Shown here: piece after piece, positions 22,539-64,000 of the stretch | Layout: every line of letters starts with the position of its first letter | How positions within the stretch are numbered: the first letter of the stretch is position 1 | From: Minisyncoccia bacterium | GTDB lineage: Bacteria > Patescibacteriota > Minisyncoccia > Phycocordibacterales > UBA9973 | NCBI GenBank assembly: GCA_965656375.1 | Contig: CBFHKH010000001.1 | Location: forward strand, 772,291 to 836,290 | Direction of reading: 5' to 3' | DNA length: 64,000 nucleotides | Program-made: the position numbers and the translations under genes | The notes under the pieces: model-generated | What the model was told of the DNA's origin: nothing | The model's input: only the letters and a program-made list of their open reading frames with translations | Databases searched by the model: none

Positions 22539-22570
22539 AAAACACTCTCGTAAATACGAGAGTGTTTTGC
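22539..22570 (+). terminator. rRNA operon terminator
   Basis: AAAACACTCTCG-TAAATA-CGAGAGTGTTTTG. Confidence 0.6.
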
Positions 22571-22610
22571 TATTGACAGCTTATTAAAAAACGGAGTAAT
22601 ATCTGAGTAT

Positions 22611-22772
22611 ATGGATATAGAAAAAATGACTTCAGAAGAAGTGAAAATATTAGCAGAAAAAGTGAAAAATAAAGCTGCAACACCCGAAGAGGAGTTAACC
22701 TTGCTTAAGTTTTTGAATCAAGGGATAGAACAAACGAGAGCTTTTATTAAAGATGTAATGGAGGATAAATAA
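22611..22772 (+). CDS. Small hypothetical protein (53 aa), translationally coupled to the next ORF
   Basis: TTGACA-18-TAATAT promoter at 22573-22602. ATG ORF MDIEKMTSEEVKILAEKVKNKAATPEEELTLLKFLNQGIEQTRAFIKDVMEDK ends 4 nt before the next start. Below the track's 60-aa cutoff. Confidence 0.35.
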   Translation: MDIEKMTSEEVKILAEKVKNKAATPEEELTLLKFLNQGIEQTRAFIKDVMEDK

Positions 22773-22775
22773 TAT

Positions 22776-39913: not shown

Positions 39914-39968
39914 CCATAGATTATAGCCTATTTTCCATTTTTGCTGTAGTTTAGGTATAATATAGCCT

Positions 39969-45752: not shown

Positions 45753-48700
45753 ATGAACAAAGACAATAATCCAAAGTTTTTCAAATTAATACAGAAAATT
45801 CTCACCAAGCTTAAGCCTCGGTTTTCTTTACATTACGTTTCATATACCATACTTTTTTTGATGGTAGTATTTTCTGTTGTGCATCTCGTCGGTGCTGCAA
45901 CTCCGAACCCTGGTCACCCATGGAGTGAAGTTGGTGATGGAGTATTTACATTTACAAATGGACAAACAGTTACGAACTACACTTACACATTCCCAGCAGC
46001 GACTACCACCGTACTCACTACAAACGCACTGGTAACTCCTAGTCAAGGAGGAACTGGAATTGGAACCTACACTATCGGAGATTTAATTTATGCATCGGGA
46101 ACAACGACACTTACTACGCTTGCTGATGTTGCTACTGGAAGCTGTTTGATTTCCGGTGGTGTCGCAACTGCACCATCATGGGGTACATGTACAACCGGTG
46201 CTATTACCTCTCTCTCTGCGATTGGCTCATCTCCAAATGCTAACGGCGCGACTATCACTGGCTCAGTTCTTAACCTTGAACCCGCATCAGCATCGTTTGG
46301 TGGAGTGGTTACGACTGGTACTCAGACATTTGCTGGTCAAAAGACAATTTCAAATTCAACAACATCTGGTGCAGACCTTGCAATCACAAACACTGGTGCA
46401 TATACAGGTACAGGAATATTCAATCTCACTGCAAACTCAGCAACAAGTGGAACTCTGGCGTTAATAACTTCAAATAGTCAAAATGCAGGAAAAATGCTAG
46501 ACCTACAATTTTCAAACAATGGAGTATTCACGTCACATACAGCATTAAATATTTTAACTACAGGATCCGATAGTGGCAGTCCTACTACATACGGAGCTCA
46601 AATTTCAAATACCCATTCTTATAATAATATTGCTCTCTACTTGAATGCTTCTGGCGGTACAGGCTCAAATCCAAACAGAGCACTTGTTGTAAATGCGGGT
46701 ACTGTTACCGTCACCCCATTCAGCGCTGCAAATGGTGTTATTTATGCAACAAGTTCTGGAGTACTCACTCAAAGTGGAATAAATAGTACTGGAACAACCC
46801 AATGTTTAACTCAAGTAAGTTCTGGGGTTCCTACATGGGGGTCTTGTACAACCGGAGCCATAACAACCCTTGCAGCAATCGGATCATCACCAAATGCAAA
46901 TGGTGCAACATTAACTGGTTCAACTCTTAACCTTGAACCCGCATCAGCATCGTTTGGTGGAGTGGTTACGACTGGTACTCAGACATTTGCTGGTCAAAAG
47001 ACAATTTCAAATTCAACAACATCTGGTGCAGACCTTGCAATCACAAACACTGGTGCATATACAGGTACAGGAATATTCAATCTCACTGCAAACTCAGCAA
47101 CGACGGGTACGCTTGGATTGATTAATGGAGATGGACTTACGAGTGGTTCACTTCTTTCACTTACATCAAATGGAACAGCAACTGACAATAACCAGAAAGG
47201 ATTGAACATTTCACTCTCTGGTACAAATGCCAGTTCGTCAAAAACATCGTATGGCTTGTATGTTTCAAATGCACACCTTGGTACGAGTGCGAATAATTAC
47301 GGTACATACTTGTCTGCGACCGGAGGTGTTTCAAGTACCAATATCGCACTATATGCGACAGCAAGTGGATCAAATACAAATAATTATGCCGCAGTCTTTC
47401 CATCAGGAAGAGTCGGCGTGGGCTTGATCCGACCATTTAATATATTTCAAGTAGCACCTGTCCAATATAGCACTGGTTCAGTGTCTCAATCAGGCACTAC
47501 CGTGACTTTAACTGGAGCAACGTGGAGTAGTACAGTACAACCAGGAACTGTATTAGTGTTTGCAGACGGAACAAAGCGCATTGTAGATTCTTATACTGAT
47601 AGTACTCATATTGAAGTTACAGTATCTGGGACCGTTTCAAGTCAGTCATATACACTCAACTATACGGGATTAAATGTTGATGATTTAGGGAATGTAATGA
47701 TTGGTTCAACAACGAATCCAAATACTAATAGTAGACTTTATATCAATGGTGGTAACAATGGTGCAAATATCGACGCACGAGGCTGGCCCGGGGCAGCAAC
47801 AGACAGTAGTATTATTGAGCTTGAGGGATCTGATTATGATACAAACGCTCAATCCACATATCTTATGTATACAGGTGTTACTGCCACCGGGACACAGATG
47901 GGGTACTCAAAAGCAAATCTAGCGCAACTTGTCTTTAATGGGGACAATGCATTGATTTATTCTGGTTTAAATACTCCTATTATGTTCGGTACTAATGGAA
48001 CTCAACGGATGGTCCTATCTGCAGGAGGAAACTTCAGTATCGGATCAAATACCACAACCTCTCTTTTCAACGTCGGTTCTTCTGCACAGTTTCAGGTTAA
48101 CTCTTCTGGTGCAATTGCTGCGGCGGCTGGTATCACTTCAAGTGGAACTATTACATTCTCAGGTCTTGGCGGTGGAGGTATTCAATGTGTACAGACAAGC
48201 AATACGGGAGTACTCTCAGCAGCGGCGTGTGGTGGAGGCTCATCCACCTGGAACGGTATCACCAATCCGACTGGAACACAGACGCTCACGTTTGACGATG
48301 CTGAACTTAATAACTGGACAATGAATTCTGATACGGAAACATTTTGGACAATCACTTCCAACTCTCTTACAAGCGGAAAAGTTCTCTCTCTTGCATCATC
48401 ATCACTCACTACTGGAGGACTTATTGATCTAACTACCACCTCAACCGCACTTACTTCAGGCGGACTTCTTAATCTCCAGGCGACTGGTGCTCCAGCGAGT
48501 TCATGGACAGGGGAGCTCGCCAAGATCGAGTACAACAATGCTGATGTAGATGTAGATGGCAGCGCGCTCAAGGTAGGACTCCTCGGTGCAGCTGGAGGCG
48601 AAGGCACAGCACTCAACATCACGACCGCACAGACAGGAACAAATGCGTACGCACTTCGCGTCAACGATGATGGCACCTACACAGACAGTACGCCGTTTGT

Positions 48701-51700
48701 CATTGATAAGGCGGGTAGTGTAGGAATCGGAACGACAGCCCTCAGTACCAATGTCCTCAGTGTGGTTGGGAGTACTTCTTTCACTGGATCAGGAAGCAAC
48801 CGGTTTGATTTTACTAATACGACCGCAAGTTCCAGTAACGGAGTACTCGGTGTAAACGCGACTGCAAGCAGTGACTTTATCCCTGGTATTCGATTCTCCA
48901 CTACTCAGACGGCAACTGGTTCTCTCTTTGCTTCATATGGTACGCAGAACTTTTGGACCTCTGCCGCAGTTGTAACTGGAGCAGGTGTTGGGCAAAACGC
49001 ATACGGTATATACAATGCGATGACAAAAAGCGGAGCAGACACAGCAACTGGAACATACAATCTATTTGGTTCATATAATTCAGTATCAAACACTGGAAGA
49101 ACCAATGTGGGAACAGTCAATACATATGGTGGATATTTTGAAGCGCTTGGCGATACAGCGGGAACATCTACTACTACAGCTGGATATTTCTATGCATCAG
49201 GAGCAGACAATAACTACGCTGGTATATTTGATGGTGGAAATGTGGGAGTAGGAGACACTACTCCAGCGTCACTCTTTACCGTCGGTAACGGCGACCTCTT
49301 CCAGATCAACTCGACAGGTCAGATAGGTTCTCAGCAAGCACCTGTTTCTGACTACCTCTTCGCGCTTGCAGGCACGACAGGTAATGACAACAGTCGTATT
49401 ATAGATATTACTCAAGCAAATAATGCGGATGAAACTAGTACAGGGATTTCATTTACGGGTACACCTACCTTAGGTGCAATTGCTGCGAATCGTAATATCT
49501 CAGGTATGGATATCACTCTGACCCCGAGCTTTACTTCGAATGCTCATAGACCATTTATATATGGCTCTACGAATACAATCTCGCTTTCAAGCGCGACCTA
49601 TGATGCGACAGACCTTGCATCTGTTATTGGTAATAATTCTACTATCACAGGTACTCCAGTTATCAACGATACTGGCGGTGAAGTATCACTTTTGGTTGCT
49701 GGAACACAAGGTTCTGTTGGTTTTACTCCAACGCTGACATCAGTCTCTACTGCTGACATTACCACATTTGGTGGCCGGTTCTTGAACACAGTATCTTCAG
49801 CAGGAAATGCTAATCTACAAATGATTTCTTACGGAATTCAAACTTCTGCAACTGGTAATCTGACCACTACAGGAGCCACTTCTCATTATGGCGGACACTT
49901 CCTTGCATCCGGTACGGCAGATATAAATTATGGTATTTATGTAACTGCGTCTGGCGCAACGAACAACTACGCGGCTGTATTTGATCAGGGAAATGTGGGG
50001 ATCGGAACGACAACTCCAGGTTCCGCACTCGATGTAAAAGGTACGATCCGCTTGAGCGGCGCAACATCAGGATATGTTGGCCTCGTCTCACCATCTGCAC
50101 CTACGTCATACACATGGACACTTCCAACTGCTGACTCTTCTGGTTGTATCCAGTCAAACGGTTCAGGAACACTCAGTATTGCTGCTTGTGGCGGAGGTGG
50201 CCTCACTGTCGGTACGACAGCTATTGCAAGTGGTGGTGCAAATCGAGTTCTCTTTGAAGATGGATCAAACAAGCTTGCTGAAAACTCAAACTTCACATAC
50301 GACGGTACGACCCTCGGAGTTTCGAATGCATCTACAACTGCATCAAACAAGGTACTCAATATTTCTCAGACTGGTGCAACTACGGGTACCGACTACGCTG
50401 GATATTTCTCAAATACCGGTGCAGCGACAACCAATGTCGGATTGTACACTACGGCTTCCGGCGGTACGACAAATCTTGCGTTAAATGTTGATGCGGGCCA
50501 GACACTCCTCGGAGGAACGACGCTTACTTCCGGAACATTAGCCAAATTAAACATTGTGAGCACTATGGCTTCAAACGGTTCTACAACAGCTATCGCTGGA
50601 ATTCACGGCGACTATACATTTAATAACGGAGGCGCTGCGAGTTATGTCCAAGTCGGCAATCGTTTTGTGTTCAACAACGCGCCGACAACAAATGCAAATA
50701 CGATGGTAGGCGAAGTACTCAGAACAGTTGATAACACCTCTCTTGCAAATCTTGTTCGTGGCATTGAAATTGTTTCAAATGCTGGCAGCAATACTGCAGG
50801 TACGAACACCGGCTTGCGATCAACAGGAGCAACATTTGGTGTACAAGCAATTACTTCAGGTCTTGCAGGTGGAGTAGCGTTACCAGCTGGTCTCTATGCA
50901 GAAAATACAGGGACTACTCAGGGAGATGTTGCTCGATTCTATACAGGTTCGATGACTTCAGCTCCTTCAATGGTCAATATCTATCATGACACGTCGACAT
51001 TCACTGGAACTGGTCTTATCATGGATATGGCTGTAGGTTCAGGAACTTTTTCAGGTGACTTTATGAATCTCAAAAATGCGAGTGTTACAAAATTCAAAAT
51101 AACAAATGCAGGAGTGGTCAGTATGGGTCTTTCTGGTACTGCAAGTACAAATGCCCTCTGTTCTAGTTTAGCGAATGCTACTGCTCCTACCGCTGGTACG
51201 GCGTATGAAATCCGAGATTGTAACGCTGCTCCAGCTGCCGATTACGCTGAGATGTATCCAGTCGAAGCTGGGACAGAATATGGAGATATCGTTGCAGTGG
51301 GAACTGAGATGGTAACCACCTACGATGTTACTGATGGTAATATTGATTGGACAAAAGTGAAAGGTAAAATTACAAAGTTAGTAAAATCTAACAAAGCATA
51401 TCAAAGTAATATCGTAGGTATCGTTTCAGATAACCATGGTGACTTTACCTCAGCTGGTCATAATATAAAAGAAATCGACAATCCTATGCCGATTGCTCTC
51501 AACGGTCGTGTCCCAGTGAAAGTAGCACATGACTCAGAAGCTATTTTACCAGGAGACTATCTTACTACTTCTTCATCAGAACCAGGGAAGGCAACAAAAG
51601 CTAAAAAATCCGGACAAGTTATCGGTAAAGCACTTGATACATGGACTCCCGATTCAGGTGCTCCTACAGTTATGGTCTACGTAGAACAGGGATTCTACAA

Positions 51701-52964
51701 TGGTAAAGGAGTGAGTGAGTTTGCTGGTATTGATCCAGTTGCAACTGATTTTGCGAAACAGGTTCTCGAAACATTTATGAATAATCAACAGTATGCGAGC
51801 GAGGGATCTGAACTCATGCTTGATCGAATTGCTGTTGGAGTAGAAATAATCACGTCGAAACTTGTTGCTGATACTGTTAAAGTAAATACAATTAGTGCAG
51901 CAACTGGAGACACTGTAGGACTTCTTCTTGGCCCTGACGGAAAATTAATAATAAACTCTGGAACAACTAAAGCTGCAAATCCAGTTATTACGTTTGACTC
52001 GCTTGGGAATGCGACATTTACTGGCAAGGTTACAGCACACGATATAGAAGTTACTAATCTTTCTGGAATACAAAATATTACTGATCAGATAAACCAGCTT
52101 TCCGAAGGCCAGGCTGCATTTACTCTTACTACAGAAGTTATCAATACACTCTCAACAGTACTCACAATTGCACAAGCTGATATAACTAAATTGAAAGATG
52201 ATATGGGTAGATTACAAAGTACTGTCACCGGTCTTGTGGTTCGTGGTGATGATCTCGATACTCGCATGAAACTTGTAGAATCATTCCTTGTACGAGATGA
52301 GTCTGGTGTTCCAACTGGTATCGCTACTGTAGGGTTAAATGTAAGTGGCGATGGAACTTTTACTGGCAAAACTCAGTTTGACGGACTTTCATTCTTCTCT
52401 AACACTACCTCATTTGCAGGAGGAGTTATTTTTGGAGGACAAACAGAGTTCACGCTTCCACCACTTTATAATAAAGATACTGCTGGATATGCGCTCATTA
52501 AAGAAGGGGATCGACGAGCAAAGATTGTATTTGCACAGCCGTATATCGCAACTCCAGTTGTAAATACTTCAGTTACATTTGAAGCAGAAGATGAGATCGA
52601 TGATACCAAGGCACAGGCGTTATTTGCAGATGATATTCGATTCATTATCGTAGGCAAAGATCAGACTGGATTTACAATACTCCTTAATAAGCCAGCAATT
52701 CGCGATATACGGTTCTCATGGAATGCTCTCTCAGTAAAAGACCCGGCTATTTTCACAAGTGTATTTGAAGGTTTGACCATTGAGCCAACACCACCTCCGG
52801 CAGAAAACAACACAACTCCTTCAGGAGATGAAGGAACTCAAGATGGAAACGAAGAACAAAATAGTGGAATTGGTACCGAAGAGACCCAAACTCCTCCTGA
52901 AAACACCACGCCACCTTTAGATAATGGCGGAACTTCCTCTGGAGATACTCCTACTGCAATATAA
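45753..52964 (+). CDS. Giant (about 2,400 aa) membrane-anchored cell-surface repeat protein, G/T/S/N-rich, with tail-fibre-like 'NNYAAVFDxGNVGIGTT' motifs, C-terminal coiled coil and Pro/Thr-rich tail
   Basis: N-terminal hydrophobic anchor (VSYTILFLMVVFSVVHLVGAA). About 219-aa tandem repeats (TTGAITSLSAIGSSPNANGAT...GQKTISNSTTSGADLAITNTGAYTGTGIFNLTANSAT). Recurring (T)NNYA(A/G)(V/I)FDxGNVG(I/V)G(T/D)TTP. Heptad segment INQLSEGQAAFTLTTEVINTLSTVLTIAQADITKLKDDMGRLQSTV. Ends PTPPPAENNTTPSGDEG... Single uninterrupted ORF. Confidence 0.7.
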   Translation: MNKDNNPKFFKLIQKILTKLKPRFSLHYVSYTILFLMVVFSVVHLVGAATPNPGHPWSEVGDGVFTFTNGQTVTNYTYTFPAATTTVLTTNALVTPSQGGTGIGTYTIGDLIYASGTTTLTTLADVATGSCLISGGVATAPSWGTCTTGAITSLSAIGSSPNANGATITGSVLNLEPASASFGGVVTTGTQTFAGQKTISNSTTSGADLAITNTGAYTGTGIFNLTANSATSGTLALITSNSQNAGKMLDLQFSNNGVFTSHTALNILTTGSDSGSPTTYGAQISNTHSYNNIALYLNASGGTGSNPNRALVVNAGTVTVTPFSAANGVIYATSSGVLTQSGINSTGTTQCLTQVSSGVPTWGSCTTGAITTLAAIGSSPNANGATLTGSTLNLEPASASFGGVVTTGTQTFAGQKTISNSTTSGADLAITNTGAYTGTGIFNLTANSATTGTLGLINGDGLTSGSLLSLTSNGTATDNNQKGLNISLSGTNASSSKTSYGLYVSNAHLGTSANNYGTYLSATGGVSSTNIALYATASGSNTNNYAAVFPSGRVGVGLIRPFNIFQVAPVQYSTGSVSQSGTTVTLTGATWSSTVQPGTVLVFADGTKRIVDSYTDSTHIEVTVSGTVSSQSYTLNYTGLNVDDLGNVMIGSTTNPNTNSRLYINGGNNGANIDARGWPGAATDSSIIELEGSDYDTNAQSTYLMYTGVTATGTQMGYSKANLAQLVFNGDNALIYSGLNTPIMFGTNGTQRMVLSAGGNFSIGSNTTTSLFNVGSSAQFQVNSSGAIAAAAGITSSGTITFSGLGGGGIQCVQTSNTGVLSAAACGGGSSTWNGITNPTGTQTLTFDDAELNNWTMNSDTETFWTITSNSLTSGKVLSLASSSLTTGGLIDLTTTSTALTSGGLLNLQATGAPASSWTGELAKIEYNNADVDVDGSALKVGLLGAAGGEGTALNITTAQTGTNAYALRVNDDGTYTDSTPFVIDKAGSVGIGTTALSTNVLSVVGSTSFTGSGSNRFDFTNTTASSSNGVLGVNATASSDFIPGIRFSTTQTATGSLFASYGTQNFWTSAAVVTGAGVGQNAYGIYNAMTKSGADTATGTYNLFGSYNSVSNTGRTNVGTVNTYGGYFEALGDTAGTSTTTAGYFYASGADNNYAGIFDGGNVGVGDTTPASLFTVGNGDLFQINSTGQIGSQQAPVSDYLFALAGTTGNDNSRIIDITQANNADETSTGISFTGTPTLGAIAANRNISGMDITLTPSFTSNAHRPFIYGSTNTISLSSATYDATDLASVIGNNSTITGTPVINDTGGEVSLLVAGTQGSVGFTPTLTSVSTADITTFGGRFLNTVSSAGNANLQMISYGIQTSATGNLTTTGATSHYGGHFLASGTADINYGIYVTASGATNNYAAVFDQGNVGIGTTTPGSALDVKGTIRLSGATSGYVGLVSPSAPTSYTWTLPTADSSGCIQSNGSGTLSIAACGGGGLTVGTTAIASGGANRVLFEDGSNKLAENSNFTYDGTTLGVSNASTTASNKVLNISQTGATTGTDYAGYFSNTGAATTNVGLYTTASGGTTNLALNVDAGQTLLGGTTLTSGTLAKLNIVSTMASNGSTTAIAGIHGDYTFNNGGAASYVQVGNRFVFNNAPTTNANTMVGEVLRTVDNTSLANLVRGIEIVSNAGSNTAGTNTGLRSTGATFGVQAITSGLAGGVALPAGLYAENTGTTQGDVARFYTGSMTSAPSMVNIYHDTSTFTGTGLIMDMAVGSGTFSGDFMNLKNASVTKFKITNAGVVSMGLSGTASTNALCSSLANATAPTAGTAYEIRDCNAAPAADYAEMYPVEAGTEYGDIVAVGTEMVTTYDVTDGNIDWTKVKGKITKLVKSNKAYQSNIVGIVSDNHGDFTSAGHNIKEIDNPMPIALNGRVPVKVAHDSEAILPGDYLTTSSSEPGKATKAKKSGQVIGKALDTWTPDSGAPTVMVYVEQGFYNGKGVSEFAGIDPVATDFAKQVLETFMNNQQYASEGSELMLDRIAVGVEIITSKLVADTVKVNTISAATGDTVGLLLGPDGKLIINSGTTKAANPVITFDSLGNATFTGKVTAHDIEVTNLSGIQNITDQINQLSEGQAAFTLTTEVINTLSTVLTIAQADITKLKDDMGRLQSTVTGLVVRGDDLDTRMKLVESFLVRDESGVPTGIATVGLNVSGDGTFTGKTQFDGLSFFSNTTSFAGGVIFGGQTEFTLPPLYNKDTAGYALIKEGDRRAKIVFAQPYIATPVVNTSVTFEAEDEIDDTKAQALFADDIRFIIVGKDQTGFTILLNKPAIRDIRFSWNALSVKDPAIFTSVFEGLTIEPTPPPAENNTTPSGDEGTQDGNEEQNSGIGTEETQTPPENTTPPLDNGGTSSGDTPTAI
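46269..46444 (+). repeat. 176-bp perfect intragenic direct repeat, copy 1 (within a ~657-bp tandem unit)
   Basis: Identical to 46926..47101. The surrounding unit is diverged to roughly 85%. Confidence 0.8.
46926..47101 (+). repeat. 176-bp perfect intragenic direct repeat, copy 2
   Basis: Identical to 46269..46444. Confidence 0.8.
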
Positions 52965-53014
52965 AGGAAAAAAGTTTAAGCCTATTTTAATTTATAAAGC
53001 ATAGTATTATTCCT

Positions 53015-53965
53015 ATGAATAAAGAAGTTGAAAAATTAAGTAAAAAAGTTAAAAAACAGAAGTGGGTAATATATGTACTTGTTATTTGTATACCCCTTAG
53101 TATTCTTATAACTCGGCTATTTCTTCGTATGAATAATGTTTCTGAATTTAATTTCCCACTTCTTGATCCGCTTCGTAAATTTATTCCCGCAGAAAACTAT
53201 ATTACGAATATAGAAAGTCTTAGAAATTATCTAGCAGATTTAGGGAGGAGATATCCTGACTCCATTACTATTTATTACGAAAACATAAATTCTGGTTCAA
53301 ATATTTCTGTTAATAAAGATTTAAGATTATTTCCTGCATCACTTTCAAAACTTGCCCAGGCGATACTTATTGTGCATAAAGTTGAAAAAGGTGATCTTTC
53401 TTTTGATCAAGAGTTGAAAGTTATTCCTGAAGATCTTTCTTCAGGGTCAGGAAATCTTTATCAAACAATTGAGGGTAAGTCTATAACAGTAGAAAATTTG
53501 TTAAAAGAGTTACTTATAAATTCCGACAACACTGCGCAAAATATTTTTAAACGATATCTTGATTTCTCTGATTACGCTGACTTTCAAAATACGACTGGAT
53601 TGCAAGATTTGTATAATGAAAATGGTTTCATATCTGCAAAAGAATATACACGTATTCTTCGCGTACTTTATACTTCGAATTTTTTAAAGCCAGAAAATTC
53701 TCAAAAGATACTTGAGTACATGGCAGATTCCACTTTCCATGACTACCTTTCGCAAGGAATTCCAGAAGGTGTTGTGTTTGCGCATAAATATGGCGAGAAT
53801 AAAGATTACAACATTTTCGCAGATTCGGGTATTGTCTATGTACCTGGAAAACCGTACATGATATCTGTGATCATTAAGGGAAAGGATTCAAGCCCTGAGA
53901 CCCGGGCATGGGCTACTAGTCTTATGAAAGAGATATCTCAACGAGCGTACGCTATTAATAAATAG
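53015..53965 (+). CDS. Membrane-anchored serine hydrolase with class-A beta-lactamase fold (SxxK, SDN motifs)
   Basis: N-terminal TM helix. SLSK (in LFPASLSKLAQAIL), SDN (INSDNTAQN) and KYG (HKYGEN) in the spacing expected for S70xxK / S130DN / K234TG. Confidence 0.6.
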   Translation: MNKEVEKLSKKVKKQKWVIYVLVICIPLSILITRLFLRMNNVSEFNFPLLDPLRKFIPAENYITNIESLRNYLADLGRRYPDSITIYYENINSGSNISVNKDLRLFPASLSKLAQAILIVHKVEKGDLSFDQELKVIPEDLSSGSGNLYQTIEGKSITVENLLKELLINSDNTAQNIFKRYLDFSDYADFQNTTGLQDLYNENGFISAKEYTRILRVLYTSNFLKPENSQKILEYMADSTFHDYLSQGIPEGVVFAHKYGENKDYNIFADSGIVYVPGKPYMISVIIKGKDSSPETRAWATSLMKEISQRAYAINK

Positions 53966-54134
53966 TATCGATCTATATGACAGGGAAGCCGGTAGTTTCT
54001 ATCATTGAGACTCCTGGTTTATCAACATAGCTTACTGTACATACTATTAATGAATAGGGTATACTTATAGTGTTCCTCTATCAACCCTCACTTCTCTTAC
54101 AGTAACCGTTCTGTATCAAGAAGAGTATCAGTCT

Positions 54135-54329
54135 GTGAAAAAAACATTTAGAAATTCAATACGAATTTTTGCAACACTTGTTGTAGTTTTTTTGTTACCT
54201 TTACATATATATAAAACCGAGGCAGCTGTAAGCAGGTCGATATATATCACAAGCGGTTCTTTATCAGTAGCTTGTGTAGAATCTATTTTTTCAAATTGTG
54301 CAGTGAAGTTTCATACTATCAATGAATAA
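54135..54329 (+). CDS. Small hypothetical exported peptide (64 aa); doubtful
   Basis: ORF with a signal-like N-terminus that overlaps the start of the next gene by 8 nt. No other support. Confidence 0.15.
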   Translation: MKKTFRNSIRIFATLVVVFLLPLHIYKTEAAVSRSIYITSGSLSVACVESIFSNCAVKFHTINE

Positions 54330-55332: not shown

Positions 55333-55384
55333 GAAACCTTTATTAAAGATATACATAATAATGAACGCGAACTACTTAAAAACA

Positions 55385-58300
55385 ATGAGACTTACCGCAG
55401 CATTCTTTCTTATTGGATGGTATCTGTTTTCATTTGCTGGTACAGCTGAAGCAGCTACAAGGACATGGACTGGCACAACCAACGGCTTGTGGTCTCTTGC
55501 AAGCAACTGGGGAGGGACTGCCCCTGTAACCGGAGATGATCTTGTGTTTCCTAATGGAGCATCAAACCTTTCAAATACTAACGATCTCGCAGAAAATACC
55601 ATAATAAACTCTATAACTATTTCTGGAAGTGGGTACACTCTTTCTGGTAATCCAATAATTCTTGGTGCGGGACTTGCGGGTATCACTGATAGTGCTTCTT
55701 CAGGAGGGAATACTATTGCTCTCGATCTTCGTCTCGATATAACACGTGATATTGTTGTTACTAATAGTGGTGAGACACTTACTATCAGTGGAAGAATCGC
55801 TGGTGTTGGCGGTATCAACAAAGAAGGTCTCGGGAAAGTTGTTTTCTCCGGAGCAAACACATATGGCGGAATAACAAAGATCAATACGGGTGTCATTAAT
55901 GCGCGTACTAACACCGCACTTGGGACCGCTGCAACTGGAACTGAAGTTGTCGGCAATGCTTCACTGGAACTTGAAGGGGATATTGCCATCGGATACGAAT
56001 CATTGACCGTGAGAGGATATGGAGTCTCAAGTGGCGGCGCACTTCGCAATATAAGTGGTGACAATAGGTTCGGTGGCTTTATCACGTTGGTTGCCGGCGG
56101 AGCAGAAATTGCTTCTGACGCTGGTACTCTTACTATCACCGGCGGAACTACAGGTAATTTTCCACTCATTTTTGATGGGGCTGGTGATATCACTTTTTCA
56201 ACCGCTCCAATTGCTGGATCGGGCGCGATCACTAAAAATGGCGCTGGAACAGTGACATATAATTTCCCGAACACCAATACTGGACTCCTCACGATCAATA
56301 GCGGGACCATTCGCTATGGAGTAGATAATGCGATTTTAAGCGGTGCGGTTACTATCACCGGCGGTACGCTTGATATTGCAACGTACTCAGATATGGTGGG
56401 AACCGTGACGCTTGGCACCCTTGATCTTGCAAGCGGTACTATCACCGGAACTACTGGATTGCTTAGTAGTGCCACATGGACTCTCTATAATGGAACTATT
56501 AGTGCAAATATTGCCGGGGATGGTGGTGCGCTTACAAAAAGTACCCCTGGAACAGTAGTATTGTCAGGATCAAATGAATACACTGGAGCTACTACTATCA
56601 GTGCGGGAATTTTAAAAATTCAAAGCAATACGGCTCTGGGTCTGATCGATGGCATCACGACCGTCACGGCAGGCGCGACACTACAGATTGACGGTGATGG
56701 CCTTTCTATTCCCGAATACATCACGTTTTCTGGAACTGGTCATCTCTATACCGGAGCGATCCGAAATTCAAATGGAGATAATACTCTTACTGGCCTCCTT
56801 ACGCTTGGCGCAGCTGCAATGATCGAGTCAGAGAGCGGAGCAACGCTCACGATAGATTCAAAAGGATTATCGGCAACAACTCTCGGGCTTATCATTGCTG
56901 GAGCGGGTAATACGACATTTACCTCGACTGCACCGATATATGGTACCACTGCAACACTAACAAAGAATGACTCTGGTACGCTCACACTCCAAGCATTCAA
57001 CAACTTCACTGGAGCTACGAACCTTAGCCGTGGCGAAATTGTACTCAGTGGATCTGGGGCTATTTCCAATTCAGCGGTCACAATTGGCAGCGGAGGAACG
57101 TTGACGGTCGATAATTCTACGACAGCTGCACTCAACCGTCTGAGCGAAACCGCTGCACTTACTATGAATGGTGGGGCATTTAATTTCATTGGTAACAGTA
57201 GTACTGATGCTACCGAATCAACTGGAGCACTTACTCTTTCGTCGGGACATAATACTGTGACGATTACTCCAGGATCCGGCGGATCAACAACGATGACATT
57301 TGCAAGCCTCTCGCGTACCGCTGGTGCTACCGGTTTGTTTCGAGGTACCAATTTGGGTTCAAATCCTGCTGCTAATGTATCGACGCTGATGTTCACAACA
57401 GCGCCGACACTGACAGGTGGCGGAGGTGCAGCAAACAGTTCAACTCTAAGTATTGTAAAAGGTGCGTATGGAGATGCATCCCTTTCAGGACAAGGAAGTG
57501 ATATGGTCACCTATAACAAAGGGAACACTAACGGCCTGCGTCTGCTTAATACCGTAGGATTCAATGGGGAATATGCAGATGATGTAACTACTGCGAATGC
57601 GAATGTGAAGCTTACTGCGGACCGCGTCGCAACAGCAACAAATACGAACTCTCTAATATTGAACGGATTTAATATCACCAATCCTGGGAGTACGACCACG
57701 CTTCCAATCGCGAGTGCCTCACTTGCTGGTAACATTCTGATCAACTCGGCAAGCACAATCGCTGGTGCTAATACAACACTAGGTATCACCACTAATGAAC
57801 TCCCCATACTTGTAACAGCGAGCGCAACTATTTCCGCTATTATCGGTACAGCTACCACAGGATCTCTTACGCTTAGTGGAACAGGTAATGTGACGCTCTC
57901 TACAGCGAGTTTGTATACTGGTACTACTTCTATCAACGGCGCAACGCTTACTGAAGGCGCAAGTAATATGCTCTCAAGTGGAGGGGTGACAGTAGTTGGC
58001 GGAACATATGACCTTGGGAATTTTAGCGACAGTGTTGGCGCTGTCATACTCCAGAACGGAACGATTACAGGCGGGTCAGGTGTCCTCACTAGCACTGCCT
58101 CATATAGTTTCCGAGAAGGTACAGTCAGTGCAATTATTGCGGGGTCTGTGGCAGTAACTCGTATAGCGACAAGCGCTGCGGCGGACAGTGTGGTGATCAT
58201 GACTCGCAACAATACCTACACAGGCGCGACAACTCTGACGAGCGGAATCCTCAAACTTGGAGGAACAGGGGATGGCACAAATACGCCTCTTGGTACCGTT

Positions 58301-61300
58301 GCAGGGGGAGTAACGATTGCAAATATCGCTGCGCTTGACCTGAACGGCTTTACTCTTTCGACGGCTGAACCGATTAGTTCCATGAACGGTCTCGGATACG
58401 GCTTGGCGGCGGCTGTTTCAGGGGGTAACAGCAACATGGGAGCGCTCATGAACAGTTCACCATCATCTGCAAGTTACAGCGGAGCGATCACTCTTACTGC
58501 TGCGTCGCGTATCAATGCCGATTATGGAACTCTTACTATTACTAGTGCTATTTCTAGTACAGCAATTGGTCTAACTATTGGTGGATTTAGTGATAGTACT
58601 TTTTCAGGAGTCATTGCCCTTACTACAGGCACCATAACAAAAGACGGAATTGGTGTTTTGACACTTTCAAATAGTAATACGTATACGGGAGCAACTACAA
58701 TAAGTGTAGGAACAGTAAAACTTGGCGCAACAGGAGGTGCAACCAACACTCCACTTGGTACGACTGGCGGTGCAACAACAGTGGCCTTAGGCGCCCGCCT
58801 TGATCTTAATGGGTTTACACTTGGAGCAGCTGAGCCACTTACCTTAAACGGTACGGGATATGGGCTTGGTGATTTTGCAAGCGGGGCGCTTATCAATAGT
58901 TCTGGATCTAGTGTGTCATACAGTGGAGCAATTACTCAGGGTTCAGCTTCTACAATAAAGGTAGATGCTGGAGACATGACTTTAAGTGGTTCATTTTCTG
59001 GAGCGTTTGCACTTACTCTTGGAGGGACAGGGACGGGTACAATTTCCGGCCTTGTTGGTATTGCGGCTGGAACTATCACTAAAATAGATGCGGGTACGTG
59101 GACACTCTCCAATGCTGGAAGCACATATACTGGCGCAACTACTATTAATCGCGGGACGCTCAAGCTCGGAGTTGCTGGTGGTGCAACCAATACACCGCTT
59201 GGTACTACGGGTGCGGGAACTACAGTACTCTCTGGAGGGGTATTAGACTTAGCTGGATTTGCATTAGGTACCGCAGAAGCTCTGACACTCAACGGACGTG
59301 GTATAGGTAACGGCGGAGCATTAATTAATACTGGTAATGCGGTAACTTTCCTTGGAGCTATAGCTCAGGCGACTGATTCTCGAATAACAAATGATGGAGG
59401 AGGACTTCTGACTCTCTCTGGTGCGATTACTGGAGCATTTGCATTATATATTGGAGGAACAGCAAATATTACAATGGGAGCAGCGACTGGTACAGCTGGC
59501 CTCAGTTTAGTAAAACAAGGTGCTGGTACAGTGACACTCACTGGTACCAATACACATACAGGAGAAACTCGTGTTGATGCTGGTACTCTTGCCTATGCAG
59601 GAACAACAACACTTGCCGCAACGAATCTTCTCATGAAGGGCGGTACATTCAATAACGGTGCAAATGCCGATACAATCGGTACCGTAACGCTTGTCGGAGG
59701 CACTATCACGAATTCAGCTGCTCTCACTGGAACCGCATATACGCTTGAGAGTGGTACAGTGAGCGGTATTTTAGCGGGGGCCGTTGCCGTGACAAAAAAC
59801 ACGAACAACACTGTAACACTGAGCGGCGTCAATACTATTAGTAGTACGCTGACCATCAATGCCGGGACTCTCGCTATAAGTGGTTCAGGTTCGGCTGTTT
59901 CGGTAACTGCTGCCACGGTGAATTTAGGCGGAACACTTACTCTTGATAATAGCACTACTGCAGTTGCAAGCCGCCTCCTTGATACTATCGTCTTGACGAT
60001 GAACGGAGGTAACTTGAATTTCCTGGGCAATAGCGCCGCAGTATCCTCTGAGACAGTCGGACAGCTTGCGCTTGCATCAGGACACAATACTGTCACTGTT
60101 ACTCCAGGGGCAGGAGGTTCCACAACGCTCACGTTTGCAAATAATCCGGGATTTAATCGTACTGCGGGCGCAACTGTTCTTTTTAGAGGCACAAACCTCG
60201 GTGCTACTCCTGCTGCGAACGTATCTACATTAAAATTTTCAACAACAGCACCGACACTAACTGGTGGTGGGGGAGCTTCAAGCTCGACAACTATTAGCAT
60301 CATCAAGGGTGCATTTGGTGATAGTTCGTTATCTGGCTCCGGTAGCGATATGGTGACTTACAACGTAGGTAACACCAATGGGCTTCGACTTCTAAACGGT
60401 GCCGGATTCTCCGGAGAGTATGCAACAAATTTCGGGACAACGAATGGGAACGTAAAACTCGGTGCAAATACAGCGGCAAGTACAGCAACAATCAACTCTA
60501 TTATTTTAAATAATTTTGGTATAACGAATCCTGGTAGTGCTCAGACGATAACACTTTCGACGACAGGAAACATCTTGGCAAACTCTGCTACCACTATCGC
60601 TGGTGCGAATACAGTACTCGGTATTTCTACAAGCGAGCTCGATGTGCTAGCTACGGCGAATGCCACGATAAGTGCAGTCATCGGTACTGCAGTTGCCGGG
60701 TCTATGGTACTCAGTGGTTCAGGCAATATAACATTGAGTACAGCCGCTCTTTATACTGGTACGACATTCGTAAATGGTGCAACACTTACGTATGGCGTAA
60801 GCAACGTGCTTTCGAGTGGAGGCGTGACCATAGTAGGGGGAACATATAACTTAAATGGTAATTCTGATACTGTCGGTGCACTTTCTCTTAATGCAGGAAC
60901 AATTACAACCGCAGCCGGCACATTGACGACATCAACAGGGGGAGTCACTACGATTGCGAACAATAATACCCCTTCGCTTATTAGTGGTGCTCTAACACTC
61001 GGTGCAGGGGGCACATTTAATATCGGTAATGGGATTGTTGATAATGACACTATTATTTCTGCGGTAATAAGTGGAACGACACTTACAAAATCAACTGGTA
61101 CTGGAGTACTCGAACTTTCTGGAAGCAATACGTATACAGGGCTCACGACTGTGAGTGCAGGCACAATCAGACTTGGTGCTGCCGGCGGCGCAACCAACAC
61201 GCCGCTTGGAACAACTGCAGCAGGAACAACTGTATCAGGAGCAAGCTCAGCTTTGGATTTGAACGGCTATACCCTAGGAACATCAGAGGCGCTCACACTC

Positions 61301-64000
61301 AGCGGTGCACTGGCAACAGGTGCATTGCAAAATACATCAAGTACGGCTGTGACGTACTCTGGATTACTAACTCTCGGTGCAGCAAGTAGTATTATTTCAA
61401 ACTACGGAGATATAAACATATCTAACGCGGGTAGTATTACAGGCACCGGTTTCTTGCTGACGATAGGAGGAGCAGGGAATGGAATATTGGCGAGCACACT
61501 TGCTACATCCACCTCTGGAGCTTTAACTAAAAATGGAATGGGTATATGGACTGTCTCGGGAGCAAATACCTACACTGGTGCAACTACTATTAGTGCTGGT
61601 ATATTGAAACTCGGCAGTGGAGGAAGCGGAACGAATACTCCGCTCGGAACGACTGCCGGTGCGACAACACTCAGTAGCGGTGCGGTGCTTGATTTGAACG
61701 GCTTCACGCTGAGCTCCGCCGAACCAGTGACGATCAACGGTGCCGGCATAGCGAACATTGGCGCATTCATCAATAGTTCGAACAACACTACATCGTTTTC
61801 AGGACCTCTAACCATGGCCGGAGCATCCCGTATTGCCAATCACGGAAGTGGGGTAACAACGGTGAGCGGAAATATCTCAGGTAACTTTGCCTTGACTGTG
61901 GTAGCGGTTGGCAATTTTACACAAGCAACGAACAGTGTCTGGTCAGGTACGGGTACTCTTGTAAAAGAAGGTCCAGGTACACTCACACTTTCGGGGCAGA
62001 ATACCATGTCGGGGACTATGACCGTCAGTACGGGCACACTCAAACTTGGCGACAACGGCGGCGTAACCAACACGCCACTCGGCACGATTGCCGGAGGCGT
62101 GACGGTATCATCAGGGGCTGTGCTCGATTTATCTACATTCACTGTCGGAGGAGCATCAACTTGGGAGCCGCTCACACTCTCTGGAAGTGGACTCCTAAAC
62201 GGAGGAGCACTTATCAGTAATTCTTCTACAGGAAGTACATTTGCAACTGTGGCACAGACGAATGCGCGTATCGTAAACAATGGCGCAGGGACACTCTCGA
62301 TCACTGGCGCTGTTACAGGTGCATCGACTTTCTGGGTCGGCGGATCTGGTGATACTATTATTTCTGGCGCGCTTAACACTGCAGGATTGCTTCTCACCAA
62401 GTATAATCCCGGTGTTCTCACTCTTAACAGTGCTTCGAATATAAATACTTCTCTTGTGCGTATTAATTTGGGTACTCTTCGCTATGGAATTGGTAACGGA
62501 CTATCTACACCTCCTGTCACAATTGCCGGTGGAACATTAGATCTAAACGGCTTTAGTGATAGCATTGGAACAGTAACCTTAATTGATGGATCTATAATAA
62601 ACAGTGGAGGGGCGGCTACACTTACGTCAACCGCTACATATGTTCTTGAAAATGGAACAGTAAGTGCGGTTCTCGGAAGCGCGGTAGCTACAGGTATTTC
62701 CAAAACGACAGCTGGCCGTGTGATACTCTCAGGTGATAACACCTTTACCAGTACATCTATCGCGCTCAATGCAGGGTATCTTAATATCCGTCACAACAAT
62801 GCCCTCGGTGCTTCAGGAACGACACTTACGACAACTGTCTCAGGTGGAGCGACACTTGAACTCGAAAACGGCATTACTATACCAAGCACCAAACTCATAA
62901 CTGCAAATGGAACAGGAATGGAACGAAGTGGTGCGATCAGGAGTGTTAATGGTACGAACGTCATAAGTGCAAATGTGACGCTCGGTACCACCAATGTGCG
63001 TATAAATTCCGACAGCGGTAGCTTGACTGTCCCAAGTATATCGGGGAACACATTTAATACGATATTCGGCGGTGCCGGTGATACGACTGTAAGTGGTGCG
63101 ATTAGTACGACTACCGGCAGTCTGACTAAGGATGGGGCGGGAGCACTTACGCTTTCTGGAACCAATACGTATACGGGGAGCACGACGGCGATGGCAGGTA
63201 CTATTGTTGCAAACACGACTGCATCGCTCGGTGATGGAAGCAACGCAAATAACACGTTCATATTTAAAGGCGGTACGCTTCAGGCGACCGGGACGATAAC
63301 CTCTGCATCAACTCGTGCATTCGTGCTCGCGACCAACGGGGTGATCGATACCAACGGTAATAATGTCAGTATCGCCGGTACGGTCGGCTCGCTCGGTAGC
63401 CTTACTAAAAACGGCGCCGGCACCCTCACGATAAGTGGCGTAACAACAATCGGCGGCAACTTCACGATTGGCGCAGGCACATTTGTAGCGCCGACAAGCC
63501 TGACGCTCGGAGGAGACTTCAGCAATAGTGGTACCTTCACGCACAGCAACGGTACGGTGACACTTGTTCCAACCAACAGCACACTTACAACGAACATTAT
63601 CGGTAGCTCAGATACATCTTTTTATAATCTTACAAACACAACTGCAGGATCAACACTGCAGTTCAAGGCGGGTAATACCTATACACTGGCAAACACATTC
63701 ACGCTCGGCGGGGCAGGAGCAGAAGAAAACCCTGTCTCAATCAACTCCGATAGCGCTGGTTCGCAGTGGTTCATGACACTCTCTGGATCTGCTGTAATCT
63801 CAAATGTCAAAGTTAAAGACTCCGGCTGTAGTGGGGGAAACAGTGTTTCTGCAAGTAGCACAATATATGATTATGGAAATAACGGTCTATGCTGGTCATT
63901 CTTAACAGTCACACATGGAGGAGGAGCTGGCAACATTGAGCCTTCGGAAGATCCAGATGACCAACAAGATGGCGGCGGAGGTGGTGGAACAGGTGGTGCG
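55385..64000 (+). CDS. Giant secreted PATR (autotransporter-associated beta-strand repeat) protein, over 2,870 aa, 3' end beyond the window
   Basis: Start MRLTAAFFLIGWYLFSFAGTAEA (signal peptide), then ATRTWTGTTNGLWSLASNWGGTAPVTGDDLVFPNGASNLSNTNDL and dozens of 'GxGTLTLSGxNTYTGxTTIxxGTLKLG...TNTPLGT' repeats. The frame is open to position 64000 by manual translation and is absent from the ORF track only because no stop is reached. A large internal ~2.8-kb diverged duplication is present (57181-57600 vs 60000-60420). Confidence 0.7.
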   Translation, partial: MRLTAAFFLIGWYLFSFAGTAEAATRTWTGTTNGLWSLASNWGGTAPVTGDDLVFPNGASNLSNTNDLAENTIINSITISGSGYTLSGNPIILGAGLAGITDSASSGGNTIALDLRLDITRDIVVTNSGETLTISGRIAGVGGINKEGLGKVVFSGANTYGGITKINTGVINARTNTALGTAATGTEVVGNASLELEGDIAIGYESLTVRGYGVSSGGALRNISGDNRFGGFITLVAGGAEIASDAGTLTITGGTTGNFPLIFDGAGDITFSTAPIAGSGAITKNGAGTVTYNFPNTNTGLLTINSGTIRYGVDNAILSGAVTITGGTLDIATYSDMVGTVTLGTLDLASGTITGTTGLLSSATWTLYNGTISANIAGDGGALTKSTPGTVVLSGSNEYTGATTISAGILKIQSNTALGLIDGITTVTAGATLQIDGDGLSIPEYITFSGTGHLYTGAIRNSNGDNTLTGLLTLGAAAMIESESGATLTIDSKGLSATTLGLIIAGAGNTTFTSTAPIYGTTATLTKNDSGTLTLQAFNNFTGATNLSRGEIVLSGSGAISNSAVTIGSGGTLTVDNSTTAALNRLSETAALTMNGGAFNFIGNSSTDATESTGALTLSSGHNTVTITPGSGGSTTMTFASLSRTAGATGLFRGTNLGSNPAANVSTLMFTTAPTLTGGGGAANSSTLSIVKGAYGDASLSGQGSDMVTYNKGNTNGLRLLNTVGFNGEYADDVTTANANVKLTADRVATATNTNSLILNGFNITNPGSTTTLPIASASLAGNILINSASTIAGANTTLGITTNELPILVTASATISAIIGTATTGSLTLSGTGNVTLSTASLYTGTTSINGATLTEGASNMLSSGGVTVVGGTYDLGNFSDSVGAVILQNGTITGGSGVLTSTASYSFREGTVSAIIAGSVAVTRIATSAAADSVVIMTRNNTYTGATTLTSGILKLGGTGDGTNTPLGTVAGGVTIANIAALDLNGFTLSTAEPISSMNGLGYGLAAAVSGGNSNMGALMNSSPSSASYSGAITLTAASRINADYGTLTITSAISSTAIGLTIGGFSDSTFSGVIALTTGTITKDGIGVLTLSNSNTYTGATTISVGTVKLGATGGATNTPLGTTGGATTVALGARLDLNGFTLGAAEPLTLNGTGYGLGDFASGALINSSGSSVSYSGAITQGSASTIKVDAGDMTLSGSFSGAFALTLGGTGTGTISGLVGIAAGTITKIDAGTWTLSNAGSTYTGATTINRGTLKLGVAGGATNTPLGTTGAGTTVLSGGVLDLAGFALGTAEALTLNGRGIGNGGALINTGNAVTFLGAIAQATDSRITNDGGGLLTLSGAITGAFALYIGGTANITMGAATGTAGLSLVKQGAGTVTLTGTNTHTGETRVDAGTLAYAGTTTLAATNLLMKGGTFNNGANADTIGTVTLVGGTITNSAALTGTAYTLESGTVSGILAGAVAVTKNTNNTVTLSGVNTISSTLTINAGTLAISGSGSAVSVTAATVNLGGTLTLDNSTTAVASRLLDTIVLTMNGGNLNFLGNSAAVSSETVGQLALASGHNTVTVTPGAGGSTTLTFANNPGFNRTAGATVLFRGTNLGATPAANVSTLKFSTTAPTLTGGGGASSSTTISIIKGAFGDSSLSGSGSDMVTYNVGNTNGLRLLNGAGFSGEYATNFGTTNGNVKLGANTAASTATINSIILNNFGITNPGSAQTITLSTTGNILANSATTIAGANTVLGISTSELDVLATANATISAVIGTAVAGSMVLSGSGNITLSTAALYTGTTFVNGATLTYGVSNVLSSGGVTIVGGTYNLNGNSDTVGALSLNAGTITTAAGTLTTSTGGVTTIANNNTPSLISGALTLGAGGTFNIGNGIVDNDTIISAVISGTTLTKSTGTGVLELSGSNTYTGLTTVSAGTIRLGAAGGATNTPLGTTAAGTTVSGASSALDLNGYTLGTSEALTLSGALATGALQNTSSTAVTYSGLLTLGAASSIISNYGDINISNAGSITGTGFLLTIGGAGNGILASTLATSTSGALTKNGMGIWTVSGANTYTGATTISAGILKLGSGGSGTNTPLGTTAGATTLSSGAVLDLNGFTLSSAEPVTINGAGIANIGAFINSSNNTTSFSGPLTMAGASRIANHGSGVTTVSGNISGNFALTVVAVGNFTQATNSVWSGTGTLVKEGPGTLTLSGQNTMSGTMTVSTGTLKLGDNGGVTNTPLGTIAGGVTVSSGAVLDLSTFTVGGASTWEPLTLSGSGLLNGGALISNSSTGSTFATVAQTNARIVNNGAGTLSITGAVTGASTFWVGGSGDTIISGALNTAGLLLTKYNPGVLTLNSASNINTSLVRINLGTLRYGIGNGLSTPPVTIAGGTLDLNGFSDSIGTVTLIDGSIINSGGAATLTSTATYVLENGTVSAVLGSAVATGISKTTAGRVILSGDNTFTSTSIALNAGYLNIRHNNALGASGTTLTTTVSGGATLELENGITIPSTKLITANGTGMERSGAIRSVNGTNVISANVTLGTTNVRINSDSGSLTVPSISGNTFNTIFGGAGDTTVSGAISTTTGSLTKDGAGALTLSGTNTYTGSTTAMAGTIVANTTASLGDGSNANNTFIFKGGTLQATGTITSASTRAFVLATNGVIDTNGNNVSIAGTVGSLGSLTKNGAGTLTISGVTTIGGNFTIGAGTFVAPTSLTLGGDFSNSGTFTHSNGTVTLVPTNSTLTTNIIGSSDTSFYNLTNTTAGSTLQFKAGNTYTLANTFTLGGAGAEENPVSINSDSAGSQWFMTLSGSAVISNVKVKDSGCSGGNSVSASSTIYDYGNNGLCWSFLTVTHGGGAGNIEPSEDPDDQQDGGGGGGTGGA

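Follow-up and report, generated by a model that had tools for sequence, protein, structure and literature searches.

What role is played by two membrane-anchored serine hydrolases whose genes lie between the genes for two giant surface proteins? This question is raised by a 64,000-nucleotide stretch of DNA from a Minisyncoccia bacterium (assembly GCA_965656375.1, contig CBFHKH010000001.1, positions 772,291 to 836,290; hereafter the window), in which four consecutive open reading frames (ORFs) on the plus strand occupy positions 45753-64000: a giant gene, G1, the hydrolase genes HYD1 and HYD2, and a second giant gene, G2. An earlier note on this DNA had described four same-strand ORFs here, all of which are present on the plus strand as stated, and had postulated that they form a system for attachment to a host cell or remodelling of the host wall. 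The analysis reported here favors, with somewhat better than an even chance, a different arrangement: a conserved envelope cassette of Patescibacteria (Paceibacteria-type), in which a tail-fibre-like G1 and a G2 built of PATR repeats accompany two enzymes, HYD1 and HYD2, that resemble the penicillin-binding protein (PBP) PBP-A and act on the cell's own wall.

HYD1 (53015..53965, plus strand; 316 aa) and HYD2 (54322..55332, plus strand; 336 aa) are 27% identical to each other, and both match the Pfam family PF13354 (Beta-lactamase2) over profile positions 1-214, with E-values of 7e-39 (133.7 bits) and 1.2e-34 (119.9 bits), respectively, at a cut-off of 22. The SxxK, SDN, and K(Y/F)G motifs noted earlier are found in both proteins: S109-L-S-K112, S170-D-N, and K258-Y-G in HYD1, and S120-L-L-K123, S182-D-N, and K274-F-G in HYD2. 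Among 26 HYD1 homologues (60-77% identity), S109, K112, S170-D-N, H257-K258, and G260 are invariant, so the catalytic Ser and Lys are retained throughout this family. The HYD1 family is narrow and strongly conserved (258 proteins at E<=1e-10), and the HYD2 family is broad, with 2,170 proteins at the same threshold across phyla that belong to the Candidate Phyla Radiation (CPR).

The class A beta-lactamase fold previously suggested for these enzymes is borne out by PF13354 and the motifs, but in other respects they are PBP-A-like. Glu166, the general base in the omega loop of class A beta-lactamases, is required for deacylation. The 26 HYD1 homologues conserve no Glu in this loop region; the corresponding position (Leu158 in PBP-A) is either Leu196 in HYD1 or part of a deleted loop, depending on the alignment, and in HYD2, where the loop alignment is ambiguous, it is Leu209 or Asp211. 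Because a conserved Glu166 is lacking, HYD1 and HYD2 are judged from their sequences not to be beta-lactamases. Both also score below the 200-bit cut-off of the NCBIfam model bla_class_A (91.5 bits for HYD1 and 71.8 bits for HYD2). Both have as their nearest relative of solved structure PBP-A (Tll2115) from Thermosynechococcus elongatus (E-values of 1.3e-11 for HYD1 and 9e-10 for HYD2), which is a DD-carboxypeptidase/endopeptidase rather than a beta-lactamase (PMC11189452).

Like PBP-A, each protein combines SxxK and SDN motifs, the lack of the Glu166 general base, and an N-terminal membrane segment, and HYD1 and HYD2 are predicted to be PBP-A-type DD-carboxy/endopeptidases. They differ from PBP-A in the third motif, which is K-T-G in PBP-A but K-Y-G in HYD1 and K-F-G in HYD2; in an omega-loop region that is shorter or aligns ambiguously; and in the location of their genes, which are flanked by those of two giant surface proteins. 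The alignments to PBP-A have E-values of only ~1e-9 to 1e-11. In each protein, one hydrophobic segment is present, at the N-terminus (residues 14-40 of HYD1 and 8-35 of HYD2), and the match to the catalytic domain begins ~45-60 residues after it. The window also encodes FtsW/RodA, glutamate racemase, and SecDF; thus, the cell has peptidoglycan genes of its own, together with the Sec accessory SecD/SecF. Given this short N-terminal tether and the presence of FtsW/RodA and glutamate racemase, the peptidoglycan of the cell itself is a likelier substrate than the wall of a host, and the host-wall remodelling proposed earlier is correspondingly disfavored.

The placement of the hydrolases is conserved in relatives. 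At loci found with the HYD1 profile, a G1-family C-terminal ORF lies directly upstream in 16 of 19 cases, and wherever the flank suffices, a PATR giant lies downstream in all 14 loci at 59-76% HYD1 identity. Among the 16 is a Kerfeldbacteria locus (L021) with only 40% HYD1 identity; the giant downstream of the hydrolase is there of the Laminin_G_3/DUF2341 type, not PATR. HYD2 orthologues adjoin HYD1 in L019 and L024, and in L029 and L030 an enzyme of the HYD2 type stands alone, with a giant of the G1 family on one side and a PATR giant on the other. The G1-hydrolase-PATR block, with HYD1, HYD2, or both as the hydrolase, is thus kept at more than 20 loci of related Patescibacteria, as the earlier note had wished to see checked, with one relative (L025) that has no hydrolase. 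The homologues come from sources named Candidatus Pacebacteria/Paceibacterota, Saccharibacteria (third-party-annotation labels of metagenome-assembled genomes), Kerfeldbacteria, and "Patescibacteria group"; together with the rRNA features of the window described below, these names make it reasonable to assign the organism to the CPR. A location of distant HYD homologues in the dcw cluster was considered and rejected: the neighbors in L022 are ArgRS, a LysM/WxL protein, unknown proteins, and PGA_cap.

A further gene is part of this arrangement in relatives. In L001-L003, the order is giant, HYD1, an HSP20-domain gene on the minus strand, and PATR giant. This gene (227-310 aa; e.g. L002:10972-11676), which in relatives lies between the hydrolase and the PATR giant, is also found in L001, L003, L006, L007, L010, L012-L019, L024, and L025, and its N-terminal half, as read from the sequence, resembles a Bro-N/KilA-N-type domain. 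A tblastn search indicates that it is absent from the window.

Within the window, the layout resembles an operon, since the spacers between G1 and HYD1 and between HYD2 and G2 are only 50 and 28 nt and a consensus scan finds no terminator-like site on the plus strand in any of the spacers. The short spacers described earlier are therefore correct for these two, but not for the middle one, which is 356 nt long and contains a possible 64-aa ORF (54135..54329, plus strand) with a GTG start and a signal-peptide-like N-terminus (MKKTFRNSIRIFATLVVVFLLPLHIYKTEAA…). This ORF overlaps the start of HYD2 by 8 nt and is missing from L019 and L024, in which HYD1 directly adjoins HYD2. Between pheT and G1 there is an AT-rich hairpin followed by a T-run, which makes it probable that transcription begins anew at G1.

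The G1 ORF (45753..52964, plus strand) encodes a giant fibre-like surface protein of 2,403 aa, and this exact protein has already been recorded from an 840,184-bp NCBI contig. A start at an alternative in-frame ATG, at 45744, would lengthen it to 2,406 aa, and it is from this ATG that G1 residues are numbered here. The G2 ORF (55361..64000, plus strand) encodes 2,879 aa within the window and is still open at base 64000; Logan contig L005, which matches the window without a difference over 16,920 nt, yields the complete gene. ORFs of 7-10 kb far exceed chance expectation, and the giant ORFs are intact both in the window and in the identical second assembly, which speaks against the pseudogenes that had been a concern. 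Many minus-strand ORFs of 90-310 aa lie inside G2 (e.g. 55372-56310); these are most likely artefacts of a Gly/Thr/Ser-rich coding sequence of 48-49% GC rather than genes. Among the relatives, the G1 gene of L007 (L007:2-6578) is split into ORFs of 1145 and 1083 aa and the PATR gene of L003 (L003:11807-20972) into ORFs of 2170, 85, and 1567 aa, which may reflect frameshifts, assembly errors in repeats, or pseudogenes.

What kind of protein is G1? Its composition (T 15.3, G 12.6, S 10.1, A 9.7, and N 7.6%) is as G/T/S/N-rich as had been noted, and as a whole it matches nothing in Pfam, PHROG, or NCBIfam; weak matches to FlgI and BppL_N, obtained when the whole protein and 600-aa pieces were compared with these three collections, were below cut-off and were discarded. 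A hydropathy scan reveals only one hydrophobic segment, residues 27-55 (45822..45908, plus strand), which is followed by …HLVGA|ATPNPGH and could be either a signal anchor or a cleavable Sec signal peptide. The N-terminal region (residues 1-175) is 52-53% identical to that of syntenic orthologues. It is followed by a variable middle, residues 176-1360 (46269..49823, plus strand), which consists of modules ending in NNYA..F..GNVGIG and gives only patchy matches of 33-69% among the same orthologues, as compared with 60-88% toward the C-terminus. The GNVGIGTT-type motifs seen earlier belong to a G-x-V-(G/M)-(I/V)-G motif that is present in five copies in G1, four of them preceded by NNYA. The middle also carries a direct repeat of 289 nt in duplicate (46177-46465 and 46834-47122, plus strand), with copies that are 88% identical at the DNA level and 657 nt apart, and thus a 219-codon (657-nt) internal duplication.

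The C-terminal third of G1 (residues 1361-2350) is 56-88% identical in syntenic orthologues. It begins with a conserved stalk upstream of the putative cleavage site, residues 1361-1832 (49824..51239, plus strand), which was delimited by its conservation in orthologues: identity is usually 52-88% and falls to 39-43% in the most distant loci, and two conserved Cys, both invariant columns, precede the D-Y-A-E motif described below. At the other end, residues 2347-2406 (52782..52961, plus strand) form the Pro/Thr tail recognized previously, a low-complexity sequence rich in Pro, Thr, Gly, and Glu that has neither an LPXTG motif nor a terminal hydrophobic segment.

An AlphaFold2 (AF2) model that covers residues 1760-2350, and for which 54 sequences were used, contains two confident domains. 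The first, residues 1833-2019 (51240..51800, plus strand), opens with the invariant D1833-Y-A-E1836 and is modelled as a beta-tulip with the fold of the C-terminal domain of phi29 gp12, making it a candidate gp12-type intramolecular chaperone and autocleavage domain. The gp12 sequence S691|D692-F-A-E695 (WS|DFAEYFE) corresponds to A1832, D1833-Y-A-E1836 (AA-DYAEMYP) in G1, and the D and E of this D-x-x-E motif are invariant in 18 diverse members of the G1 family. When the family was compared with gp12 using hhalign, the sole match paired the two D-x-x-E motifs. Asp692 and Glu695 of gp12 are reportedly catalytic in autocleavage. Mature phi29 gp12 is known to end at residue 691 (PMC6542822). In both proteins, the beta-tulip stands behind a long region of fibre or beta-structure, and (S/A)|D-[FY]-A-E-[YM]-[FY] at the opening of the domain is followed by a GKI.K…I(I/V)G(V/I)(I/V)S stretch.

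Other searches place this module among phage appendages and, more widely, among cellular giants. Of the viral structures in a library, 49 matched the beta-tulip model at E<=1e-3, among them tail fibre proteins and one preneck appendage protein, and the XM1 gp53 beta-tulip family was weakly matched by 6 of the 18 G1-family members. As many as 5,712 cluster representatives, proteins of up to 7,954 aa, contain the module, which mostly sits a few hundred residues short of their C-terminus; a tblastn search of 50,697 phage genomes with the G1 segment gave no match. Peptidase_S74 (PF13884), the tail-fibre chaperone for which the earlier note had suggested looking, was not found in G1 at E<=0.01 with the whole protein or at E<=1 with segments. 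Thus, the link to tail fibres holds, only at the level of fold and motif, for a module of the gp12/Peptidase_G2 type and not for Peptidase_S74.

There are clear differences from the phage proteins. Unlike gp12, G1 is the product of a chromosomal cellular gene beside pheST, with a Sec-type N-terminus and no phage genes nearby, and its module is not terminal, being followed by a helix, a putative H-type lectin domain, and the Pro/Thr tail. The beta-tulip decoration or cement proteins (XM1 gp53, HFTV1, TW1, the base of phi29 gp8.5, and the lambda gpD class) are small, stand-alone capsid binders, whereas in G1 the domain forms part of a cellular protein of 2,403 aa, close to its end. The possibility that G1 is a prophage remnant was rejected given the lack of other phage genes, the conserved chromosomal position after pheST, and the Sec-type N-terminus. 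Stand-alone proteins of the type of the G1 C-terminus exist in other contexts, one of which (L026) is phage-like.

Beyond the beta-tulip, and between it and the lectin-type domain, DSSP assigns a long helix to residues 2109-2166 (52068..52241, plus strand; model residues 350-407). This is a candidate coiled-coil stalk. The surrounding segment (residues ~2000-2200) shows poor conservation or deletion in some orthologues, with a gap at 2058-2228 in L001 and 29-68% identity in other orthologues. The second confident AF2 domain is a C-terminal beta-sandwich, residues 2239-2331 (52458..52736, plus strand), which appears to be a divergent H-type lectin. Pfam H_lectin (PF09458) is matched by 14 of 20 members of the G1 C-terminal family, and Helix pomatia agglutinin (HPA) is the only PDB profile match of residues 2239-2331; the family profile searched against PDB sequences gave low-complexity and chance matches only. 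Together, the beta-tulip of phage-appendage type and the membership of the C-terminal domain in this family strengthen the earlier idea that G1 is an adhesin or fibre. In a distant member of the Patescibacteria, a 565-aa Peptidase_S74 protein (L031:4226-5923) matches the lectin and tail part of the G1 profile (E 7e-15), and so the lectin-type module also follows another kind of tail-fibre chaperone.

G2 is a second giant of a different kind, a PATR beta-helix protein with a Sec signal. Its length is at least 2,879 aa in the window and 3,271 aa in contig L005. The signal peptide and PATR repeats recognized earlier are evident: the N-terminus is signal-peptide-like (…AGTAEA|ATRTW), PF12951 matches 10 stretches (7e-45), and TIGR02601 matches 13 stretches (1e-56). 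Orthologues share 70-81% identity with it over the N-terminal 400 aa. With its 10-13 PATR repeats, Gly/Thr/Ser-rich sequence of the beta-helix type, and N-terminal signal peptide, G2 resembles the type V autotransporters and PATR adhesins, but it has no C-terminal beta-barrel. In residues 1-2879, PATR is the sole Pfam family at E<=0.01, and the C-terminal 480 residues of the complete protein have significant Pfam matches only to families of the Hint type; the two scans overlap at residues ~2791-2880. Consequently, the presence of PATR repeats does not make G2 an autotransporter.

In place of a barrel, G2 carries, beyond the window, two GGSGY-type repeats and then a beta-sandwich-like segment that is interrupted by a Hint domain (residues ~3105-3237; L005:17593-17991), such that the last strands of the sandwich come after the insertion. 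PF14890 matches here with 36.4 bits at a cut-off of 35.8, and Hint, Hint_2, and PT-HINT fall below their cut-offs. The context, …GGSNA|CFIAG…FVVHN|LATAS…, provides an N-terminal Cys and a C-terminal His-Asn, but the +1 residue is Leu rather than the Cys, Ser, or Thr of canonical splicing. Because of this Leu, the domain is classed from its sequence as like a bacterial intein-like (BIL) domain rather than a canonical intein, and canonical splicing would not be expected. A polymorphic toxin (PT-HINT) was considered for G2 and rejected, given that only 29 residues and no toxin domain follow the Hint domain. The orthologues in L001 and L002 are without the ~350-aa C-terminal extension and end in poly-Gly and a hydrophobic tail.

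Taken together, these results lead to the following hypothesis. G1 would be exported by Sec and built as a trimer in the manner of a phage tail fibre, either staying anchored in the membrane or being freed by cleavage of its signal peptide. Such a fibre would run from a conserved N-terminus through a fast-evolving modular middle and a conserved stalk to the beta-tulip, a helical stalk, and an H-type lectin head. The beta-tulip, as an autochaperone of the phi29 gp12 type, would probably drive folding of the trimer and may cut itself before D1833, and the lectin head would bind a sugar. G2 would be a Sec-secreted PATR beta-helix fibre of 3,271 aa that lacks an autotransporter barrel. Tethered to the membrane of the cell itself, HYD1 and HYD2 would most likely trim or cut the cell's own peptidoglycan. 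The persistent placement of the hydrolases between the giants suggests co-expression, perhaps as a means of opening the wall for the passage of very large proteins; a functional coupling of this sort is plausible, though unproven. Both giants together would give an adhesive, variable surface, and by analogy they may plausibly help the cell attach to a partner. For CPR bacteria, a role of giant surface proteins in host attachment has already been proposed (PMC8080830). The giants of the Vampirococcus lugosii type are likewise predicted surface proteins of several thousand residues in a reduced genome with a proposed role in host binding (PMC8080830), but they differ in domain content, and that report, in the text searched, describes no gp12-like module, H-lectin head, or intercalated PBP-like gene (PMC8080830).

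Several findings weigh against this hypothesis. The pairwise sequence similarity between G1 and gp12 is only marginal. In addition, Pfam PF11962 (Peptidase_G2), which matches gp12 itself with 325 bits, gives no match in the G1 segment or in the 18 family members, even at E<=1-10; this is a further difference from gp12, and autocleavage of G1 is predicted by analogy. A self-cut at D1833 would detach the lectin head from the anchored part of the protein, which fits a distal adhesin head badly. The window's own G1 C-terminal domain, taken alone, falls below Pfam H_lectin, being too divergent from H-type lectins such as Helix pomatia agglutinin, the discoidin C-terminal domain, and SLL-2 to be recognized by Pfam on its own. 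The AF2 monomer model of the stalk (residues 1380-1850) is poor, with a confidence score (pLDDT) of 55.6, a result that fits an obligate, interdigitated trimer but proves nothing. With regard to gene order, L025 has a G1-like gene, the HSP20 gene, and a giant but no hydrolase; in L020, L022, and L023 (39-45% identity), HYD-like genes lie beside other genes; and in L031 (36% identity), the hydrolase does not adjoin giants. Finally, inherited order among fairly close relatives may explain part of the pattern, because the synteny extends to pheS/pheT.

This last point is the basis of the most serious alternative, in which there is no functional cassette at all: the giants would be independent surface proteins (adhesins or an S-layer-like coat), the hydrolases would be housekeeping low-molecular-weight PBPs, and the order would simply reflect shared ancestry. 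The synteny of pheS and pheT in relatives and the hydrolase-free L025 mean that gene order alone is no proof of functional linkage. Furthermore, the HYD2 family is spread across many CPR phyla and is found away from the giants in L031, and most of the syntenic loci belong to fairly close relatives (59-77% HYD1 identity). However, ancestry does not readily explain why the slot between the giants is kept even though the paralogue that fills it differs (HYD1, HYD2, or both), why the pairing of G1 and HYD survives at 40% identity in L021, why the intergenic gaps are so short, or why the neighbors of more distant HYD relatives are once more large proteins that are secreted or bind the wall (with fn3, BNR, Laminin_G_3, or LysM; in L020, L022, and L023, fn3, BNR, LysM/WxL, and PGA_cap). 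On balance, this alternative is a real but distinctly less probable one.

The retention of a hydrolase of the same fold in the slot through paralogue replacement has also been taken here to favor another possibility, that the PBP-like enzymes are dedicated partners that process the giants or, like a sortase, transpeptidate them onto peptidoglycan. Such a role would suit the lack of a recognizable anchor in either giant (no LPXTG and no barrel), the poly-Gly and hydrophobic tail at the end of G2 orthologues, and the DD-transpeptidase activity of some low-molecular-weight PBPs (cited in PMC11189452). Yet PBP-A itself gave no transpeptidase products (PMC11189452), L025 has giants without an enzyme, no conserved acceptor or donor motif has been identified in G1 or G2, and there is no known precedent for the anchoring of proteins by a class-A-fold PBP; the idea is improbable. 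The version of the earlier note, in which the hydrolases attack the host-cell wall as part of a weapon for attachment and host-wall remodelling, appears very improbable. It is true that the DD-endopeptidase activity of PBP-A damages a foreign (Escherichia coli) wall (PMC11189452), that the HYD genes lie between two putative adhesins, and that cultivated CPR bacteria are episymbionts (PMC8080830). Nevertheless, the N-terminal membrane segment and ~45-60-residue linker would keep the active site near the cell's own membrane, neither HYD1 nor HYD2 has a secretion, toxin, or targeting domain, and the strong purifying selection on HYD1 with its invariant motifs is unlike that of typical host-interaction effectors; moreover, the organism has wall-synthesis genes of its own. 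A conserved envelope cassette with enzymes working on the cell's own peptidoglycan thus continues to be the preferred explanation. A bolder extension of it, and a long shot, is that the PBP-like enzymes are a "wall gate" that severs cross-links to let fibres of 250-330 kDa through the peptidoglycan, or a transpeptidase that fixes the fibres covalently to the wall, and that G1-type proteins are domesticated phage tail fibres with gp12-like maturation and recognition of host sugars.

Other parts of the window contain features that deserve mention in their own right. A polysaccharide-synthesis group at positions 1-8137, which include a Polysacc_synt flippase gene (1828-3117) and a Bac_transf sugar transferase gene (6348-7640, minus strand), lies in a stretch of lower GC (0.33-0.35). 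Positions 9760-12462 encode a 900-aa protein with an LCAT/DUF676-type serine esterase (lipase-like) domain at residues ~274-400, which from its sequence could be a further secreted or host-directed enzyme. There is a 23S-5S rRNA pair with no linked 16S or tRNA. The 23S rRNA (18637-22523) is 3,673 nt long as compared with a model of 2,925 nt, leaving ~750 nt extra; a group I intron match at 21782-21969 is below threshold (37.3 bits vs a gathering score of 50, E 4.7e-7), and no ORF of at least 100 aa is present at 18189-22776. Finally, a 993-aa AddA-like protein, a UvrD-type helicase fused to a PD-(D/E)XK nuclease, is encoded at 39969-42950, and its gene overlaps head to head by ~40 nt with an ABC exporter gene (38171-40009, minus strand).

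Each part of the cassette belongs to a known kind, but the arrangement is new, and literature searches found no description of such a cassette. What is new is the class-A-fold PBP that persistently intervenes between two giants, the widespread gp12-like module, missed by Pfam in G1, with a predicted lectin head behind it, and the Hint domain that ends the G2 of this genome. The beta-tulip module is common in cellular giants and in relatives has only weak matches to phage capsid families; its recognition should aid the annotation of giants that are now "hypothetical". If the hydrolases do not serve the fibres, this is a well-annotated but ordinary envelope locus. If they do, it would represent a new link between wall remodelling and the display of surface proteins, and, should they act as a wall gate or as a transpeptidase that fixes the fibres, an undescribed route of display or anchoring for proteins that lack anchors of the sortase or autotransporter type. 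How Patescibacteria recognize and hold their partners is largely obscure beyond type IV pili, and this locus provides a conserved and testable set of candidates.

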